A stretch of 64,000 bases of DNA, taken from the sequence record ON528726; one strand, written 5' to 3'. Every line of letters begins with the position of its first letter. Within the stretch, counting starts at the first letter, position 1. Below are positions 3,546 through 64,000 of this stretch, piece by piece. A program made the translations under genes and the position numbers. The notes under the pieces are model-generated. The model was not told the origin of the DNA. It did no database searches and saw only the letters and a list, made by a program, of their open reading frames with translations. Source of the DNA: Shigella phage ESh16.

Positions 3546-4514
3546 ATGAAAACTGTAACTATCAATAAGGGTATCTACTTCGGTAAAGAAATCTCTGGAA
3601 CTTTTGAGCTTTTAGGCGAATGGTTCCCAGATAATGCTCCGGTAGATGCACAAGGAGATGGTAAAGTTTTTGTTGAAATTGACGGTAAGCGTCGCGGTGT
3701 TTGGGTTTACAAATCAGATATTTCATATGATGGTGTAAAAGTTGAAGAAGTTAAAGAATCATATGAAGATATGAAAACCCGCATTAATAAAAGATTTAAT
3801 GTTATGGGAATGATGACGAATGGTATTATTAATGGAAATATTCGTTCATTGATTATCTCTGGCGCAGCAGGTATTGGTAAAACGTATTCTTTAGATAAAG
3901 CTTTAAATAAAGCAAATGATATTGGATACATTGAATATAAAAGCATTAATGGTAAAATCTCTGGTATTGGTCTTTATGAGCAGCTTTGGAATAATCGTGA
4001 AGAGAATTCTGTACTTTTGATTGATGATGTAGATGTTTTCTCTGATATGGACATTCTTAATCTTCTAAAAGCCGCTCTGGACACTGGAGAGACCCGTAAA
4101 GTCTGCTGGAGCACTGCGTCTTCTTACTTAGAAGAAAAAGGCATTGAGCGTGAGTTTGAATTTAAAGGAACGATTGTTTTTATCACAAACGTTGACATTG
4201 ACCGCGAATTAGACCGTGGTACTAAACTTGCTCCACATTTACAAGCATTAGTGTCCCGCTCAGTTTATTTAGATTTGGGTGTTCACACTAATGAAGAAAT
4301 TATGGTCAGGGTTGAAGATGTTATTCTTTCAACTGACATGATGCAAAAGCGCGGTCTTTCTGATGAAGAAACTTATAAAGCATTATCATGGATGAAAGTT
4401 AATGTTAATCGTTTACGCAATGTTTCACTGCGTACTGCTCTTTATCTTGCTGACTTTATTATGACCGACAAAAACGGTTGGGAAGAAATTGCTGAGGTTA
4501 CTCTTCTGAAATAA
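3546..4514 (+). CDS. P-loop (AAA-like) ATPase (323 aa)
   Basis: Walker A GAAGIGKT and Walker B LLIDDVD; true ATG at 3546 after promoter cassette (track ORF from 3378 reads through the promoter). Confidence 0.6.
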   Translation: MKTVTINKGIYFGKEISGTFELLGEWFPDNAPVDAQGDGKVFVEIDGKRRGVWVYKSDISYDGVKVEEVKESYEDMKTRINKRFNVMGMMTNGIINGNIRSLIISGAAGIGKTYSLDKALNKANDIGYIEYKSINGKISGIGLYEQLWNNREENSVLLIDDVDVFSDMDILNLLKAALDTGETRKVCWSTASSYLEEKGIEREFEFKGTIVFITNVDIDRELDRGTKLAPHLQALVSRSVYLDLGVHTNEEIMVRVEDVILSTDMMQKRGLSDEETYKALSWMKVNVNRLRNVSLRTALYLADFIMTDKNGWEEIAEVTLLK

Positions 4515-60199: not shown

Positions 60200-60204
60200 T
60201 TTTA

Positions 60205-60230
60205 GGGAGAGCCGAGGCTCTCCCTTTTTA
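60205..60230 (+). terminator. rho-independent terminator (GGGAGAGCC-gag-GCTCTCCC plus T-run)
   Basis: Inverted repeat followed by TTTTTATTT; 5' part of promoter cassette. Confidence 0.65.
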
Positions 60231-60235
60231 TTTCA

Positions 60236-60324
60236 AAAATTTTTCACAAAACGGTTTACAACCAAAGCATACTGTGGTACTATACAACTATCAACTACTG
60301 ATACAGAATTACGGAGATTAGAAA
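60236..60324 (+). promoter_or_regulatory. early promoter plus leader (PeSL-like cassette copy) upstream of motA
   Basis: TTTTTCACAAAACGGTTTACA, GTGGTACTATACAACTATCAACTACTGATACAG. Confidence 0.6.
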
Positions 60325-60960
60325 ATGTCTAAAGTAACTTACATCATCAAAGCTTCTAACGATGTTCTGAATGAAAAAACTGCTGCGATTTTAATTACCA
60401 TTGCTAAGAAAGATTTCATTACAGCTGCAGAAGTTCGTGAGGTGCATCCAGATTTAGGTAATGCAGTAGTTAATAGTAATATTGGGGTATTGATTAAAAA
60501 AGGCCTGGTAGAGAAATCTGGTGATGGATTAATCATTACTGGTGAAGCTCAGGATATTATTTCAAATGCGGCAACTTTATATGCACAGGAAAATGCTCCT
60601 GAACTGCTGAAAAAACGAGCAACTCGTAAAGCTCGTGAGATTACTTCCGATATGGAAGAAGATAAAGACTTCATGTTAAAACTTTTAGATGAAAATGGAT
60701 TTATTCTTAAAAAGGTTGAAACTTACCGCAGTAATTATCTTGCTATTTTAGAAAAACGCACTCACGGAATTCGCAATTTTGAAATTAACAACAATGGAAA
60801 TATGCGAATTTTTGGATACAAAATGATGGAACACCATATTCAGAAATTTACTGATATCGGAATGTCATGTAAAATCGCTAAAAACGGTAATGTGTATCTT
60901 GACATTAAACGCTCGGCAGAAAACATTGAAGCAGTAATCACCGTAGCATCTGAACTGTGA
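60325..60960 (+). CDS. motA: MotA middle-transcription activator (211 aa)
   Basis: MSKVTYIIKASNDVLNEKTAAILITIAKKDFITAAEVREVHPDLGNAVVNSNIGVLIKKG as recalled for T4 MotA; 211 aa. Confidence 0.93.
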   Translation: MSKVTYIIKASNDVLNEKTAAILITIAKKDFITAAEVREVHPDLGNAVVNSNIGVLIKKGLVEKSGDGLIITGEAQDIISNAATLYAQENAPELLKKRATRKAREITSDMEEDKDFMLKLLDENGFILKKVETYRSNYLAILEKRTHGIRNFEINNNGNMRIFGYKMMEHHIQKFTDIGMSCKIAKNGNVYLDIKRSAENIEAVITVASEL

Positions 60961-60970
60961 GGAATAAATA

Positions 60971-61300
60971 ATGAACAAGTTAGAAATTGTTAATGAACTT
61001 CGTCGTTGTGCAGAACCCACTCAAGAGGGGTGGGACATCTGGTACCATGGAGCTTATCTTGGAACTATCGTAAAGATTAAGACTGGTAAATACATGATTA
61101 TTCGTGAAAGTAAAGATGCTCCAGTAGGTATTCGCAATAATTTTATGGCGGCGATAAGTTCATTTACGGATGCAGCTTACGAAATTTACCTTGCTGATTA
61201 TAAAGAATTCCAGGAATCTCAACCAGTTATTCGCTCAATTGGTGTTAATAAAGCTCAACAGAAAAATTTGTGGCAGCGTATTAAAGGATGGTTTAAATGA
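60971..61300 (+). CDS. hypothetical protein (109 aa)
   Basis: ORF in accessory block between motA and t. Confidence 0.4.
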
Positions 61301-61758
61301 ACCCATTTATTAATCGTTTAAAAATGCTGAATGTGCCTTTATCTCGTGAAACTCCAGAAAGTCTTGTTGAAAAATTTAAAGCGCATGGTTATAAATGCAC
61401 AGAAGAAGATATTCTTACAGAAGTTCCTGAAATCTGTTGGCAGACTGCGTATTGGGACGAAAACCAAAAATATCAACGACGAATTGTTTGCGCAGCCAAC
61501 CGTTTTAAATTAAAAGATGGACGAACTCTTGTTATTCCGGGTGCTCGTCATTATTCTAAAGATATGGCAGAAGTTTTAGATGTAGTTAAACCTCAATTAG
61601 TTACTCAACAAGTTTGTGATGATGACCAAGGGTTTATTGACCAATATAGTAATTATTGGACACGTGAAGAAGCAATGATTATTGCAACTTACGCCGGACA
61701 AGTACGTATTGAACGCGGTGGTAGTGAAAAAGAACTTTACTCTGAGGACCTTTACTAA
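61297..61758 (+). CDS. hypothetical protein (153 aa)
   Basis: ATGA overlap with previous; no motif recognised. Confidence 0.4.
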
Positions 61759-62054
61759 TGAATATTAAAAAGTTTCAAATTGATGGAATTAAGAATCAAA
61801 TCCAGGCACTAGAATATGCCAATAAAATGATGTCAACTAATTGGGGAATTTATGCCAATGAACCGGCATTTCAGTTCTGTGACATGGAATTAACTAAAAA
61901 GCTCGTAGGAAAAGATTATGTGTGCCCATTTAGTTCTCCAGTAAATGGAATGCTAAAACCTGCTTTACGCGATCTTTATATTGCGATGAACGAAGAAATG
62001 ATAAAAGAACTAAAACGTCAACTAAAGGTTATTCAATTTGGCCAGGGAAATTAA
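61758..62054 (+). CDS. hypothetical protein (98 aa)
   Basis: TAATG overlap with previous. Confidence 0.4.
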   Translation: MNIKKFQIDGIKNQIQALEYANKMMSTNWGIYANEPAFQFCDMELTKKLVGKDYVCPFSSPVNGMLKPALRDLYIAMNEEMIKELKRQLKVIQFGQGN

Positions 62055-62256
62055 TTCAAAATCCGATTATTTTAATTCTCTCAATGATAAAGATAAAAAT
62101 TTAATAAGACATTTTATCGTTGAGATGGGATATACTGACACACGCGATTTAAGAGAACATATATTTGAATGTGGTGTAGCTAAAAAGTTTTCATTCACAT
62201 GCAAATGTTTAAGAGAGGTAATTCAGCACTATGAACAATTTAGTCGCAAAACATAA
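62038..62256 (+). CDS. hypothetical protein (72 aa)
   Basis: ORF overlapping previous by 17 nt. Confidence 0.35.
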   Translation: MAREINSKSDYFNSLNDKDKNLIRHFIVEMGYTDTRDLREHIFECGVAKKFSFTCKCLREVIQHYEQFSRKT

Positions 62257-62339
62257 TTTTAATAAAGCTTCTGTCCATAAGGATAAGAAGAAAGCGTTTA
62301 AAGAATCTAATCGCAAACAGAAACATAAGGGGAAGGTCT

Positions 62340-62618
62340 ATGATTATTGATTCTCAGTCTGTGGTTCAATACACAATCAAAATTGATATTCTAGAAAAGC
62401 TATACAAGTTACTACCAAATTTATACCACTCAATTGTTAATGAATTAGTTGAAGAACTACATCTCGAGAATAATGATTTCTTGGTTGGAACTTATAAAGA
62501 TAATTCAAAGGCGGGATATTTTTACGTAATTCCAGCTCCAGGAAAAAGTATTGATGATGTATTAAAAACTATAATGATTTATGTCCATGATTATGAAATT
62601 GAAGATTATTTCGAATGA
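62340..62618 (+). CDS. hypothetical protein (92 aa)
   Basis: ORF with SD AAGGGGAAGG. Confidence 0.4.
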   Translation: MIIDSQSVVQYTIKIDILEKLYKLLPNLYHSIVNELVEELHLENNDFLVGTYKDNSKAGYFYVIPAPGKSIDDVLKTIMIYVHDYEIEDYFE

Positions 62619-62767
62619 GTCATAATCTTGAAAAGGTAATCGAGCATAATGCAGCTCAGGAACGTAAGTCGTTCAAGGAATTCGTAGAAAAAATTTTTGA
62701 AGAAAATACCACAGACCAGTTTACAAATCAAGCGTCTGATGATATTATAGTAAAGTCAACTAATTGA
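62615..62767 (+). CDS. small hypothetical protein (50 aa)
   Basis: ATGA overlap with previous; below track threshold. Confidence 0.3.
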   Translation: MSHNLEKVIEHNAAQERKSFKEFVEKIFEENTTDQFTNQASDDIIVKSTN

Positions 62768-62779
62768 GTGGTATAGTTA

Positions 62780-63052
62780 ATGAATAAAAATATTGATACA
62801 GTTCGTGAAATTATTACTGTTGCGTCTATTTTGATTAAATTTTCCCGAGAAGATATTGTTGAGAATCGTGCTAATTTTATTGCATTTCTGACTGAGATTG
62901 GAGTAACGCATGAAGGTAGAAAGTTAAATCAGAATTCATTCCGTAAAATTGTTTCTGAATTAACTCAAGAAGATAAGAAAACCCTCATCGACGAATTCAA
63001 CGAGGGTTTTGAGGGTGTATATCGATATCTAGAGATGTATACAAACAAATAA
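62780..63052 (+). CDS. hypothetical protein (90 aa)
   Basis: Last + strand ORF before convergent holin. Confidence 0.4.
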   Translation: MNKNIDTVREIITVASILIKFSREDIVENRANFIAFLTEIGVTHEGRKLNQNSFRKIVSELTQEDKKTLIDEFNEGFEGVYRYLEMYTNK

Positions 63053-63709
63053 TTATTTAGCCCTTCCTAATATTCTGGCCGCCTGAGCACATATTGATTC
63101 AAGGCGGTCATTACTTATATGATCATTTCTATACCAGTACATGGTTATTGTTCCAGCATAGATATTATCCAAATTGAAATATGGACAACTGTACATGTAA
63201 TTTATTTCGGGAGTAGGCTTTTTAGTCGGTAAAAAAGCAAATTTTGAGTTGGAATAATAATGACGTCCATTTAAATGAACTGCATATTCATCCATAGTTT
63301 TATCAACAGGATATCCTCCAAGCGATTTTTCACTTATTGTTGAAGGTAATTTTCCTTCATATGCTATAATATCAACAAAATAGTTTAAGTTTTTAGGGCG
63401 GAAAGAATACACCGCACTAAAGTCTGCCTCAGATGATATATGAACTATCTGGAGTTGTTCCAGGGCGACAGATTCAAAGCGTGCATTTCTTTCCTTTTCA
63501 ATAATTTCACTGTATGTTTCATACTTTGATTGCTTATAGTACTCAAAGAAACTATCTCCCCTATACCAAACAATCGCCATTATAAACAAAAGAATTACGA
63601 CAGCTACCCGGGAAGCAAGAACTTTCCCGGTAGCGTTATCTTTGAACAAGCGATCTAGAACACCAAACAGAATATCAGAGGGCGAAAATGATATTCTAGG
63701 TGCTGCCAT
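63053..63709 (-). CDS. t: holin T (218 aa)
   Basis: MAAPRISFSPSDILFGVLDRLFKDNATGKVLASRVAVVILLFIMAIVWY, single TM plus large periplasmic domain, as recalled for T4 holin; 218 aa. Confidence 0.93.
   Translation of the reverse strand: MAAPRISFSPSDILFGVLDRLFKDNATGKVLASRVAVVILLFIMAIVWYRGDSFFEYYKQSKYETYSEIIEKERNARFESVALEQLQIVHISSEADFSAVYSFRPKNLNYFVDIIAYEGKLPSTISEKSLGGYPVDKTMDEYAVHLNGRHYYSNSKFAFLPTKKPTPEINYMYSCPYFNLDNIYAGTITMYWYRNDHISNDRLESICAQAARILGRAK

Positions 63710-63739: not shown

Positions 63740-64000
<261 letters not shown>

Follow-up and report, generated by a model that had tools for sequence, protein, structure and literature searches.

The motA-to-t interval of Shigella phage ESh16 is the arn.4-to-asiA gene cluster of T4

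Between motA and the holin gene t, the reference genome of phage T4 (NC_000866) lists seven genes: arn.4, arn.3, arn.2, arn.1, arn, asiA.1, and asiA. They have been part of the catalogued T4 map for decades, and two of them, asiA and arn, are textbook examples whose products have solved structures. AsiA binds sigma-70 region 4 and co-activates MotA-dependent promoters (Hinton 2010, PMC2988021). Arn of T4 also inhibits the PUA-Cal-HAD defence system, an activity that is abolished by the substitution N70S (PMC12871103). In phage T2, an "arn operon" has been described as a five-gene transcript (arn.4>arn.3>arn.2>arn.1>arn). The host sRNA ArcZ pairs with positions +285 to +294 of arn.2 in this transcript, shielding it from RNase E, and a GCAUU motif for this enzyme was proposed 11 nt ahead of the ATG annotated for arn.1 (Collins et al. 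2026, bioRxiv 10.64898/2026.06.19.733364).

The DNA analyzed here, referred to as the window, is a stretch of 64,000 nt from Shigella phage ESh16 (ON528726). An initial annotation had described its motA-t interval as an accessory block of seven tightly packed, overlapping small ORFs (109, 153, 98, 72, 92, 50, and 90 aa), filling a place where T4 was thought to have a single small gene. All seven listed plus-strand ORFs were confirmed at exactly the coordinates given there, and the flanking genes, motA and the convergent t, were both confirmed by Pfam (Table 1). The count itself was one short, since an ORF of 39 aa had been overlooked and eight are present. The comparison with T4 was mistaken, as NC_000866 annotates seven genes in this interval.

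Table 1. Genes and candidate regulatory sites in and around the motA-t interval (positions in the window)
Feature	Position	Strand	Description
Promoter-like site	60255..60283	+	Sigma-70-type, TTTACA-17-TACTAT, TG extended; upstream of motA
motA	60325..60960	+	211 aa; Pfam MotA_activ and MotCF; 205/211 identical to T4 MotA; activator of middle transcription
arn.4	60971..61300	+	109 aa, full-length form
arn.3	61297..61758	+	153 aa; conserved C-terminal domain of ~95 aa
arn.2	61758..62054	+	98 aa; phrog_1844
arn.1, long form	62038..62256	+	72 aa, TTG start; phrog_4452
ArcZ pairing site	62042..62051	+	CCAGGGAAAT; +285 to +294 of arn.2, arn.1 codons 2-5
ACAUU at proposed RNase E motif position	62109..62113	+	11 nt upstream of internal arn.1 ATG
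DUF7230 gene	62231..62350	+	39-aa Lys/Arg-rich peptide, pI 10.2; PF23876, phrog_1359
arn	62340..62618	+	92 aa; DNA-mimic McrBC inhibitor by homology; Pfam DM_Arn, PDB 3wx4
asiA.1	62615..62767	+	50 aa; phrog_3762
Promoter-like site	62720..62748	+	Sigma-70, TTTACA-17-TATTAT, TG; inside asiA.1, 32 nt upstream of asiA
asiA	62780..63052	+	90 aa; predicted 10-kDa anti-sigma-70 factor and middle-transcription co-activator; Pfam AsiA
t	63053..63709	-	Holin; Pfam Phage_holin_T, 391 bits; 99% identical to T4 t

The ORFs of the window match their T4 namesakes one-to-one, in the same order and orientation and with 92-99% amino-acid identity. Identical residues number 67/68 in Arn.4, 149/153 in Arn.3, 94/98 in Arn.2, 42/42 in Arn.1, 87/92 in Arn, 46/50 in AsiA.1, and 89/90 in AsiA. 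The genes stand close together, with junctions of +10, -4, -1, -17, -4, and +12 nt, and the convergent asiA and t have their stop codons back-to-back, in the window and T4 alike. Since T4 has the same cluster at the same locus, the block is not a new acquisition. It is the long-catalogued arn.4-to-asiA cluster of T4 and was already known. The proposal of a horizontally acquired accessory block filling a gap of T4 therefore fails: the same genes stand in the same order at the same locus in T4, where two of them (AsiA and Arn) have assigned functions.

The ORFs of the window are real genes rather than open by chance. In arn.4, arn.3, arn.2, arn.1, the 39-aa gene, arn, and asiA, synonymous changes prevail in the ORF frame and in neither of the other two. 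Scans of all eight products with NCBIfam and PADLOC gave sub-threshold noise only. The 39-aa ORF, which overlaps the 3' end of arn.1 and the 5' end of arn, matches Pfam DUF7230 (44.9 bits, cut-off 27) and has a synonymous fraction of 0.56 compared to 0.06 and 0.05. The DNA of T4 encodes an identical peptide that the T4 reference does not annotate; the gene is annotated in ime09 and G3F9. It was also found in all five other genera, and the homologues in four of them match DUF7230 as well. When a profile of the peptide was searched at E<=10, nothing was found among PDB sequences and DUF7230 was the only Pfam hit. The idea that this Lys-rich peptide resembles the ribosome-rescue factor ArfA was unsupported and was rejected.

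None of the ORFs had been credited with a recognizable motif, but Pfam identifies both AsiA and Arn. Residues 2-81 of AsiA align with positions 1-85 of the PF09010 profile (140.9 bits, cut-off 25), the protein matches PDB entries 1jr5_A (E 6.6e-54) and 6k4y_I (E 1.4e-53), and its sole difference from T4 AsiA is N38T. This similarity suggests that the AsiA of the window binds sigma-70 region 4 and acts as a co-activator with MotA, by the mechanism known from the literature. Arn scores 174.1 bits against DM_Arn (PF22134, cut-off 26) and matches PDB 3wx4_A (E 1.1e-53). Its pI of 4.5 and its 16 Asp and Glu versus 7 Lys and Arg, which describe composition only, fit DNA mimicry. We infer that the Arn of the window is an McrBC inhibitor, again by a mechanism taken from published work. 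Compared to T4 Arn, it carries the substitutions F13I, F24L, I49V, L55N, and N70S. Ser70 is shared with T2 Arn, in contrast to the Asn70 of T4. With Ser70 in place, not every activity of T4 Arn can be assumed for the window protein, and inhibition of PUA-Cal-HAD is probably absent from it. The earlier suggestion that small effectors accumulate in the block holds in part: arn is an anti-defence effector, but AsiA is a core middle-transcription co-activator and not an accessory protein.

Candidate signals for transcription were found at both ends of the unit. The promoter-like site upstream of motA is preceded by a terminator-like hairpin (60204-60225) that follows motA.1, and it is a probable early promoter for motA and, through read-through, for the downstream block. 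No terminator-like site was found on the plus strand between motA and asiA. The site inside asiA.1 is the best promoter-like site of the region, with 10/12 matches, and is a probable early promoter of asiA. Promoter-like sites, counted by consensus matches, are no commoner in the region than in shuffles (13 vs 16.9), and the transcription architecture is put forward as a prediction. A MotA-box match (TGCTTTA, 61961-61967) inside arn.2 was considered as a middle promoter. In T4 middle promoters, the expected spacing from the MotA box is about 11-13 nt, and since the nearest TAnnnT lies only 9 nt from this box, the candidate was rejected.

Arn.4 is longer in the window than in the T4 annotation. 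Over residues 42-109 it matches T4 Arn.4 at 67/68 positions, and a tblastn search of T4 DNA extended the match to all 109 codons at 98%, with ATA as the start codon in the T4 reference compared to ATG in the window. Because of this ATG, the 109-aa form is directly readable in the window. The synonymous fraction over codons 1-41 is 0.73 compared to 0.13 and 0.07 in the other frames, residues 1-40 belong to the fold of the AF2 model with pLDDT >90, and nearly all Arn.4 homologues are 107-119 aa in length. The 109-aa Arn.4 is the conserved form, and the shorter T4 annotation appears truncated. The gene begins 10 nt after motA in the window and several relatives, and it lies downstream of motA in all six genera examined, with at most one small ORF between them.

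Arn.3 belongs to phrog_839, and 149 of 153 alignment columns, one gap included, are identical to the 152-aa T4 protein. The newer Pfam family PF26092 is present in all homologues, and residues R61, R69, R84, H85, Q111, D115, Y120, R123, and Q135 are invariant. A structure prediction, which the initial annotation had called for, gave an AF2 model with a pLDDT of 87, but for Arn.3 and Arn.4 alike the confident models led to no informative structural relatives. Foldseek returned weak matches of Arn.3 to proteins labeled "large polyvalent protein associated domain" (E 4e-3 to 0.1). A profile search with Arn.3 reached 3,423 representative clusters. No Pfam domain was found in the ten longest fusion proteins and no meaningful Pfam match in 45 homologues; thus, domain fusions offer no functional clue. 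Both arn.4 and arn.3 are under strong purifying selection.

The T4 annotation of arn.1 covers 62125-62256 only, in window numbering, and gives a protein of 43 aa. The 29-codon extension upstream of it has a synonymous fraction of 0.72 compared to 0.25 and 0.08, and seven Tequatrovirus sequences, with 3-7 nucleotide differences in this stretch, all encode the same amino acids. A full 72-aa Arn.1 is found in Mosigvirus (74% identity) and in Kanagawavirus (62%), with an ATG start in both and, in Kanagawavirus, Leu at the annotated Met of T4. The phrog_4452 profile also spans 72 positions. The 72-aa, TTG-initiated Arn.1 looks to be the conserved form, and the short T4 annotation appears truncated. 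Whereas Collins et al. (2026) treated the 70 nt from arn.2 to arn.1 as intergenic, this stretch behaves in the window as Arn.1 coding sequence. Given the long form of arn.1, the published ArcZ pairing site falls within the coding sequence, at codons 2-5.

The pairing site in the window, CCAGGGAAAT, is complementary to AUUUCCCUGG of E. coli ArcZ, whose identity was checked by Rfam (RF00081), and it is conserved among the arn-type Tequatrovirus sequences checked, seven of seven. It is the top predicted ArcZ duplex site in the block. As independent evidence, however, the duplex energy is not significant, since 28/200 shuffles equal it. The proposed RNase E motif is not present as GCAUU in the window, which has ACAUU together with ESh36; GCAUU is found in T4, ime09, G3F9, UTI-E2, and SF2-1. 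In the long arn.1 frame, the change relative to T4 is a synonymous Arg codon (CGG to AGA). No Rfam family matched the region above threshold, and RNA at the arn.2-arn.1 junction folded no better than shuffles (z -1.2). A tentative reading, which we consider possible but still well short of an even chance, is that the arn.2-arn.1 "spacer" belongs to the 5' end of the coding sequence for a 72-aa Arn.1, translated from a conserved TTG inside arn.2, and that Arn.4 and Arn.3, being conserved and having no informative structural relatives, would be uncharacterized core takeover proteins. If this is true, ArcZ pairs on arn.1 codons 2-5 and the proposed RNase E site lies within a translated ORF. ArcZ might then control arn.1 translation and ribosome occupancy, rather than shield an untranslated spacer.

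Taken as a whole, the region reads as a standard Tequatrovirus (T4/T2-type) prereplicative cluster that serves as a transcription unit for host takeover and counter-defence, a reading to which we assign a probability of about 95%; no observation spoke against the identification of the genes. Gene identity, synteny, coding constraint, and the presence of the ArcZ site were established directly in the window, and what is said of the ArcZ mechanism comes from the literature. Transcription would run rightward from the early promoter of motA without meeting a terminator on the way, and asiA would additionally be served by the second promoter just upstream of it. Overlapping stop and start codons would couple the genes translationally. 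AsiA is expected to bind region 4 of the host sigma-70 and, together with MotA from the head of the unit, to turn RNA polymerase toward the middle promoters of the phage. As an acidic mimic of DNA, Arn would block restriction by McrBC, and the arn.4-to-arn mRNA bears the site where the host sRNA ArcZ would pair. Any role for the remaining products is a matter of inference; Arn.4, Arn.3, Arn.2, Arn.1, the 39-aa peptide, and AsiA.1 are most likely early modifiers of host processes.

The view that the region is instead a phage-specific, horizontally acquired island of novel effectors in a plasticity zone is extremely improbable. The block does sit at a strand switch beside genes 38 and t, and one of its members, arn, is an anti-defence effector. 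In addition, the middle section differs between genera, and UTI-E2 and IME08 have an additional ORF between arn.4 and arn.3. However, the seven annotated T4 genes are the same, at the same locus, and the GC content of the block (0.29-0.39) is continuous with its flanks. An accessory region would be expected to vary in gene content among close relatives and to hold genes absent from T4. Instead, 483 phage records carry 80% or more of the block at a DNA identity of 92% or higher, which shows that it is conserved and not plastic within the genus, and all of its genes, including the unannotated 39-aa ORF, are present in T4. Gene order is maintained in Mosig-, Dhaka-, Kanagawa-, Marfa-, and Winklervirus, and six T4-like genera share conserved arn.4, arn.3, and asiA. 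Variation between genera is limited to the arn.1-arn-asiA.1 middle part, and the middle segment of Tequatrovirus slur14 is of the Mosigvirus type. The Mosigvirus gene at the arn position, a candidate distant homologue of Arn, has a weak match to phrog_8202 and, in a single pairwise BLASTP comparison, matched Arn over 38 residues (24% identity, E 6e-4). Plasticity is thus limited and localized, and there is none in the window relative to T4. The middle segment includes asiA.1, for which it is unlikely, though by a smaller measure, that the ORF is a non-coding spacer that bears the asiA promoter and is open by chance. No signature of purifying selection was found in asiA.1: 4 synonymous and 22 non-synonymous codon differences were counted, no better than in the other frames, and 10/15 variable sites fall on the first or second codon position. 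Moreover, the promoter-like site lies within it, and the ORF is absent from most other genera. Against this, the ORF is intact in seven of seven sequences checked, with ATGA coupling its start to the stop of arn. A separate PHROG exists for it, and longer ORFs that occupy this position in IME08 and Gravdalen share its "MSHNLE..." N-terminus. The three alleles seen at each of codons 32 and 46 could equally mean diversifying selection.

Within the cluster, two further explanations differ on what the uncharacterized products do. Collins et al. (bioRxiv 10.64898/2026.06.19.733364) suggested that the genes co-transcribed with arn and jointly regulated through ArcZ may, like arn, act in counter-defence. 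The arn.4-to-arn genes would then form a dedicated counter-defence operon, with each uncharacterized product directed against a different immunity system, as Arn is against McrBC. We regard this as doubtful. The products are small and early-expressed, the Arn.3 fold is very widespread in phages, as seen in the number of clusters reached, and its weak Foldseek matches point in the same direction, but PADLOC, Pfam, and NCBIfam gave no significant support. Furthermore, conservation of arn.4 and arn.3 over the six genera is mostly stronger than that of MotA and, together with their strong purifying selection, is a pattern seen more in core functions than in arms-race effectors. Among the genera compared, arn is confined to Tequatrovirus, whereas arn.4 and arn.3 are not; arn.2 falls to 33-58% identity in other genera. 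The second explanation makes Arn.4 and Arn.3 core takeover factors, partners of MotA and AsiA in transcription or nucleoid remodelling rather than agents of counter-defence. Arn.4 is 69-83% identical in four of five other genera, compared to 51-56% for MotA, its gene stays close behind motA in all six, and the unit starts with motA and finishes with asiA. This explanation is less likely still than a counter-defence operon. Arn.4 and Arn.3 are reasonable targets for function-finding among the conserved uncharacterized genes of T4.

The practical value of the comparison is in annotation. The T4 reference carries apparently truncated forms of arn.4 and arn.1 and lacks the 39-aa DUF7230 gene, and this under-annotation has propagated into the current ArcZ/RNase E model, in which probable coding sequence was taken as an intergenic spacer. 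The nearest record to the window is Shigella phage ESh36 (ON528746), with 99.9-100% DNA identity across the block and flanks; the 39-aa ORF is missing from its annotation, which gives arn.1 in the short form, but the record is otherwise essentially the same. Compared to the T4 cluster (NC_000866, 160878-162833), genes, order, overlaps, and lengths are alike, and asiA lies downstream of motA as in the AsiA/MotA sigma appropriation system of T4. Compared to the arn operon of T2, the ArcZ pairing sequence is unchanged and at the same position in arn.2, and one base of the proposed RNase E motif is altered in the window.

The block between motA and the convergent holin gene t is the well-known T4-type arn-asiA cluster and is, as such, already known. 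All seven ORFs proposed in the initial annotation were found on the + strand of the window with the positions and lengths listed in the table. That annotation assumed that only one small gene separates motA from t in T4, which is wrong; seven genes, arn.4, arn.3, arn.2, arn.1, arn, asiA.1, and asiA, are annotated in this interval of NC_000866. It had also named the presence of the same seven ORFs at this locus in T4 as the finding that would refute it, and the window ORFs do match the T4 genes one to one in unchanged order. The block seemed novel because the T4 map had been misstated. What the analysis yields in addition are corrections to the annotation and perhaps a new reading of the site targeted by ArcZ. 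The 90-aa product matched Pfam AsiA (140.9 bits) and PDB entries 1jr5 and 6k4y (E about 1e-53), and the 92-aa product matched Pfam DM_Arn (174.1 bits) and PDB entry 3wx4 (E 1e-53). Pfam also confirmed motA and t as the flanking genes. The seven ORFs form a compact array whose junctions measure +10, -4, -1, -17, -4, and +12 nt, and the stop codon of asiA abuts that of t. The GC content of the block (0.29-0.39) is continuous with its flanks. The closest public genome is that of Shigella phage ESh36, with 99.9-100% DNA identity.

Features of the motA-t interval of ESh16 and its upstream flank
Feature	Coordinates	Strand	Remarks
Strong terminator-like hairpin, 9 bp, 6 GC	60204-60225		After motA.1, ahead of the motA promoter-like site
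Promoter-like site	60255-60283	+	After the terminator-like hairpin that follows motA.1
motA	60325-60960	+	Flanking gene
109-aa ORF	60971-61300	+	T4 arn.4, 67/68 identical residues
153-aa ORF	61297-61758	+	T4 arn.3, 149/153 identical residues
98-aa ORF	61758-62054	+	T4 arn.2, 94/98 identical residues
72-aa ORF, TTG start	62038-62256	+	T4 arn.1, 42/42 identical residues
39-aa ORF	62231-62350	+	Lys/Arg-rich peptide, pI 10.2; Pfam DUF7230; eighth gene, missed in the initial annotation
92-aa ORF	62340-62618	+	T4 arn, 87/92 identical residues
50-aa ORF	62615-62767	+	T4 asiA.1, 46/50 identical residues
Region's best promoter-like site	62720-62748	+	Within asiA.1, just upstream of asiA
90-aa ORF	62780-63052	+	T4 asiA, 89/90 identical residues
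t (holin)	63053-63709	-	Convergent flanking gene

Coding was assessed by scoring codon differences between the window and 5-10 relatives as synonymous or not in all three frames. For arn.4, arn.3, arn.2, arn.1, arn, and asiA, the synonymous fraction was 0.52-0.73 in the ORF frame and 0.02-0.25 in the other two. The exception was asiA.1, which, unlike every neighbouring gene, lacks a signature of purifying selection: its fraction was 0.15 (4 synonymous and 22 non-synonymous differences) compared to 0.38 and 0.31 in the other frames. Of its 15 variable sites, 10 affect the first or second codon position, and three alleles occur at each of codons 32 and 46. This gene may be evolving fast, or it may be weakly constrained.

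Two of the T4 gene models differ from those of the window. T4 arn.4 is annotated as 68 aa and the window form has 109 aa, yet T4 has an open frame across the 41 upstream codons (3835-3957 of the T4 locus, L001; window 60971-61093), where it departs from the window only at third positions and in the start codon. That codon reads ATA in T4 and ATG in all 10 other genomes checked. Nearly all homologues of Arn.4 are 107-119 aa long. Residues 1-41 hold 15 of the 20 invariant columns, making the part absent from the T4 annotation the most conserved one, and in the AlphaFold model they make up the first helix and the greater part of the sheet, with pLDDT above 90. Therefore, the 109-aa form of arn.4 is the real gene. 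Its codons 1-41 gave a synonymous fraction of 0.73 versus 0.13 and 0.07 in the other frames. For the T4 reference strain, this leaves two options: production of little or truncated Arn.4, or initiation at AUA. Likewise, T4 arn.1 is annotated as 43 aa from an internal ATG, in contrast to the 72 aa read from TTG in the window. Across seven Tequatrovirus sequences, the amino acids of the 29-residue extension are identical even though each sequence has 3-7 nucleotide differences, and the full 72-aa form is kept, with an ATG start, in Mosigvirus (74%) and Kanagawavirus (62%). In Mosigvirus, arn.1 overlaps arn.2 by 17 nt, as in the window, and Entb_45 has Leu at the position of the annotated T4 start Met. 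The 72-aa call of the initial annotation is therefore better than that of T4. The synonymous fraction of the extension was 0.72 versus 0.25 and 0.08, and 62038-62124, regarded in T4 and T2 as an intergenic spacer of 70 nt between arn.2 and arn.1, behaves as part of the coding sequence of the long, TTG-initiated arn.1.

The 39-aa ORF shares 26 nt with the end of arn.1 and 11 nt with the start of arn, and its non-overlapping part gave a synonymous fraction of 0.56 versus 0.06 and 0.05. T4 DNA encodes an identical peptide that the T4 reference leaves unannotated. The ORF was found in each of the five other T4-like genera examined and is more widely conserved than arn. An ArfA-like identity for the peptide was considered and is unsupported.

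At least 80% of the block is present in 483 phage records at 92-100% identity, and the order motA, arn.4, arn.3, (arn.2), small ORFs, asiA, t is kept in Mosigvirus, Dhakavirus, Kanagawavirus, Marfavirus, and Winklervirus. Cross-genus identity is 69-83% for Arn.4 in four genera (45% in Winklervirus), 53-78% for Arn.3, and 50-56% for MotA. Compared to these five genera, arn and asiA.1 are essentially specific to Tequatrovirus. An additional ORF lies between arn.4 and arn.3 in UTI-E2 (51 aa; L010 1127-1282) and in IME08 (115 aa; L005 2818-3165), and in the Tequatrovirus slur14 the arn/asiA.1 segment is replaced by a Mosigvirus-type pair resembling RB69 ORF259c/258c (L011 2155-2605). Within the genus, the block is not a plasticity zone. 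The proposal that small effectors accumulate here at a plastic site is borne out to a small extent for the variable arn.1-asiA.1 segment and for the anti-defence function of arn, but not for the window relative to T4.

The genes of the block are co-oriented and coupled, and no + strand terminator-like site was found between motA and asiA. The early proteins MotA and AsiA jointly steer host RNA polymerase to middle promoters, AsiA by remodelling sigma-70 region 4, and T4 RegB was reported to cleave motA mRNA in the motif GGAG (Hinton 2010, PMC2988021). The Shine-Dalgarno sequence of motA in the window (60312-60315) contains GGAG. A MotA-box-like TGCTTTA in arn.2 (61961-61982, + strand) is followed by TATATT only 9 nt on, a spacing apparently shorter than canonical middle promoters allow. 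On the - strand, a 14-bp terminator-like hairpin (62978-63010) lies just after the holin stop codon, within asiA at the 3' end of its coding sequence, and may keep late t transcripts from extending antisense into asiA.

The products other than AsiA and Arn could act in counter-defence, a role suggested for arn-operon products by a 2026 preprint on T2 (bioRxiv 10.64898/2026.06.19.733364), or in core host takeover. NCBIfam and PADLOC scans of all eight products gave no significant match. The C-terminal domain of Arn.3, about 95 residues long, is well conserved and includes invariant R, H, Q, D, and Y residues, and the protein has a confident predicted model (pLDDT 87). Against BFVD, this model retrieved only uncharacterised phage proteins and weak matches to large-polyvalent-protein-associated domains. 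A profile search gave 3,423 representative clusters, most of them of proteins that stand alone and have about 95 aa, and no Pfam domains were found in the fusion partners of Arn.3 homologues.

According to the same preprint, arn.4 through arn (arn.4>arn.3>arn.2>arn.1>arn) form one transcript in T2, which the host sRNA ArcZ stabilises against RNase E by pairing at +285 to +294 of arn.2 (bioRxiv 10.64898/2026.06.19.733364). The exact site, CCAGGGAAAT, is present in the window at 62042-62051. With the ArcZ sequence verified at its E. coli locus by Rfam RF00081, this site gave the best predicted duplex of the whole block, though its energy alone is not significant (matched by 28 of 200 shuffles). 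The proposed RNase E motif, GCAUU, is ACAUU in the window (62109-62113) and in ESh36; in the long arn.1 frame, this difference is synonymous and leaves the encoded Arg unchanged. If the TTG start of arn.1 is real, the 70-nt intergenic region of the preprint would be coding, with the RNase E motif inside an ORF, and ArcZ would pair on arn.1 codons 2-5. Such pairing would suggest a translation-linked mechanism.

Arn acts as a DNA mimic and inhibits McrBC. For T4 Arn, a 2026 preprint (PMC12871103) also reported inhibition of the PUA-Cal-HAD defence system, which T2 Arn, with S70, did not show and which the N70S change abolished. Relative to T4 Arn, the window protein carries F13I, F24L, I49V, L55N, and N70S, so that residue 70 (62547-62549) is the T2-type Ser. 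Given the reported effect of N70S, ESh16 Arn is therefore predicted to lack PUA-Cal-HAD inhibition.

The gene after t (63740-63934, - strand) encodes a glycine-rich gp38. Matching genes in ESh36 and in ime09, another relative, are annotated as tail fibre or host-specificity protein. We take the window gp38 to be a T2-type adhesin and not the assembly-chaperone gp38 of T4; ESh16 would therefore be T2-like for its host-range genes.
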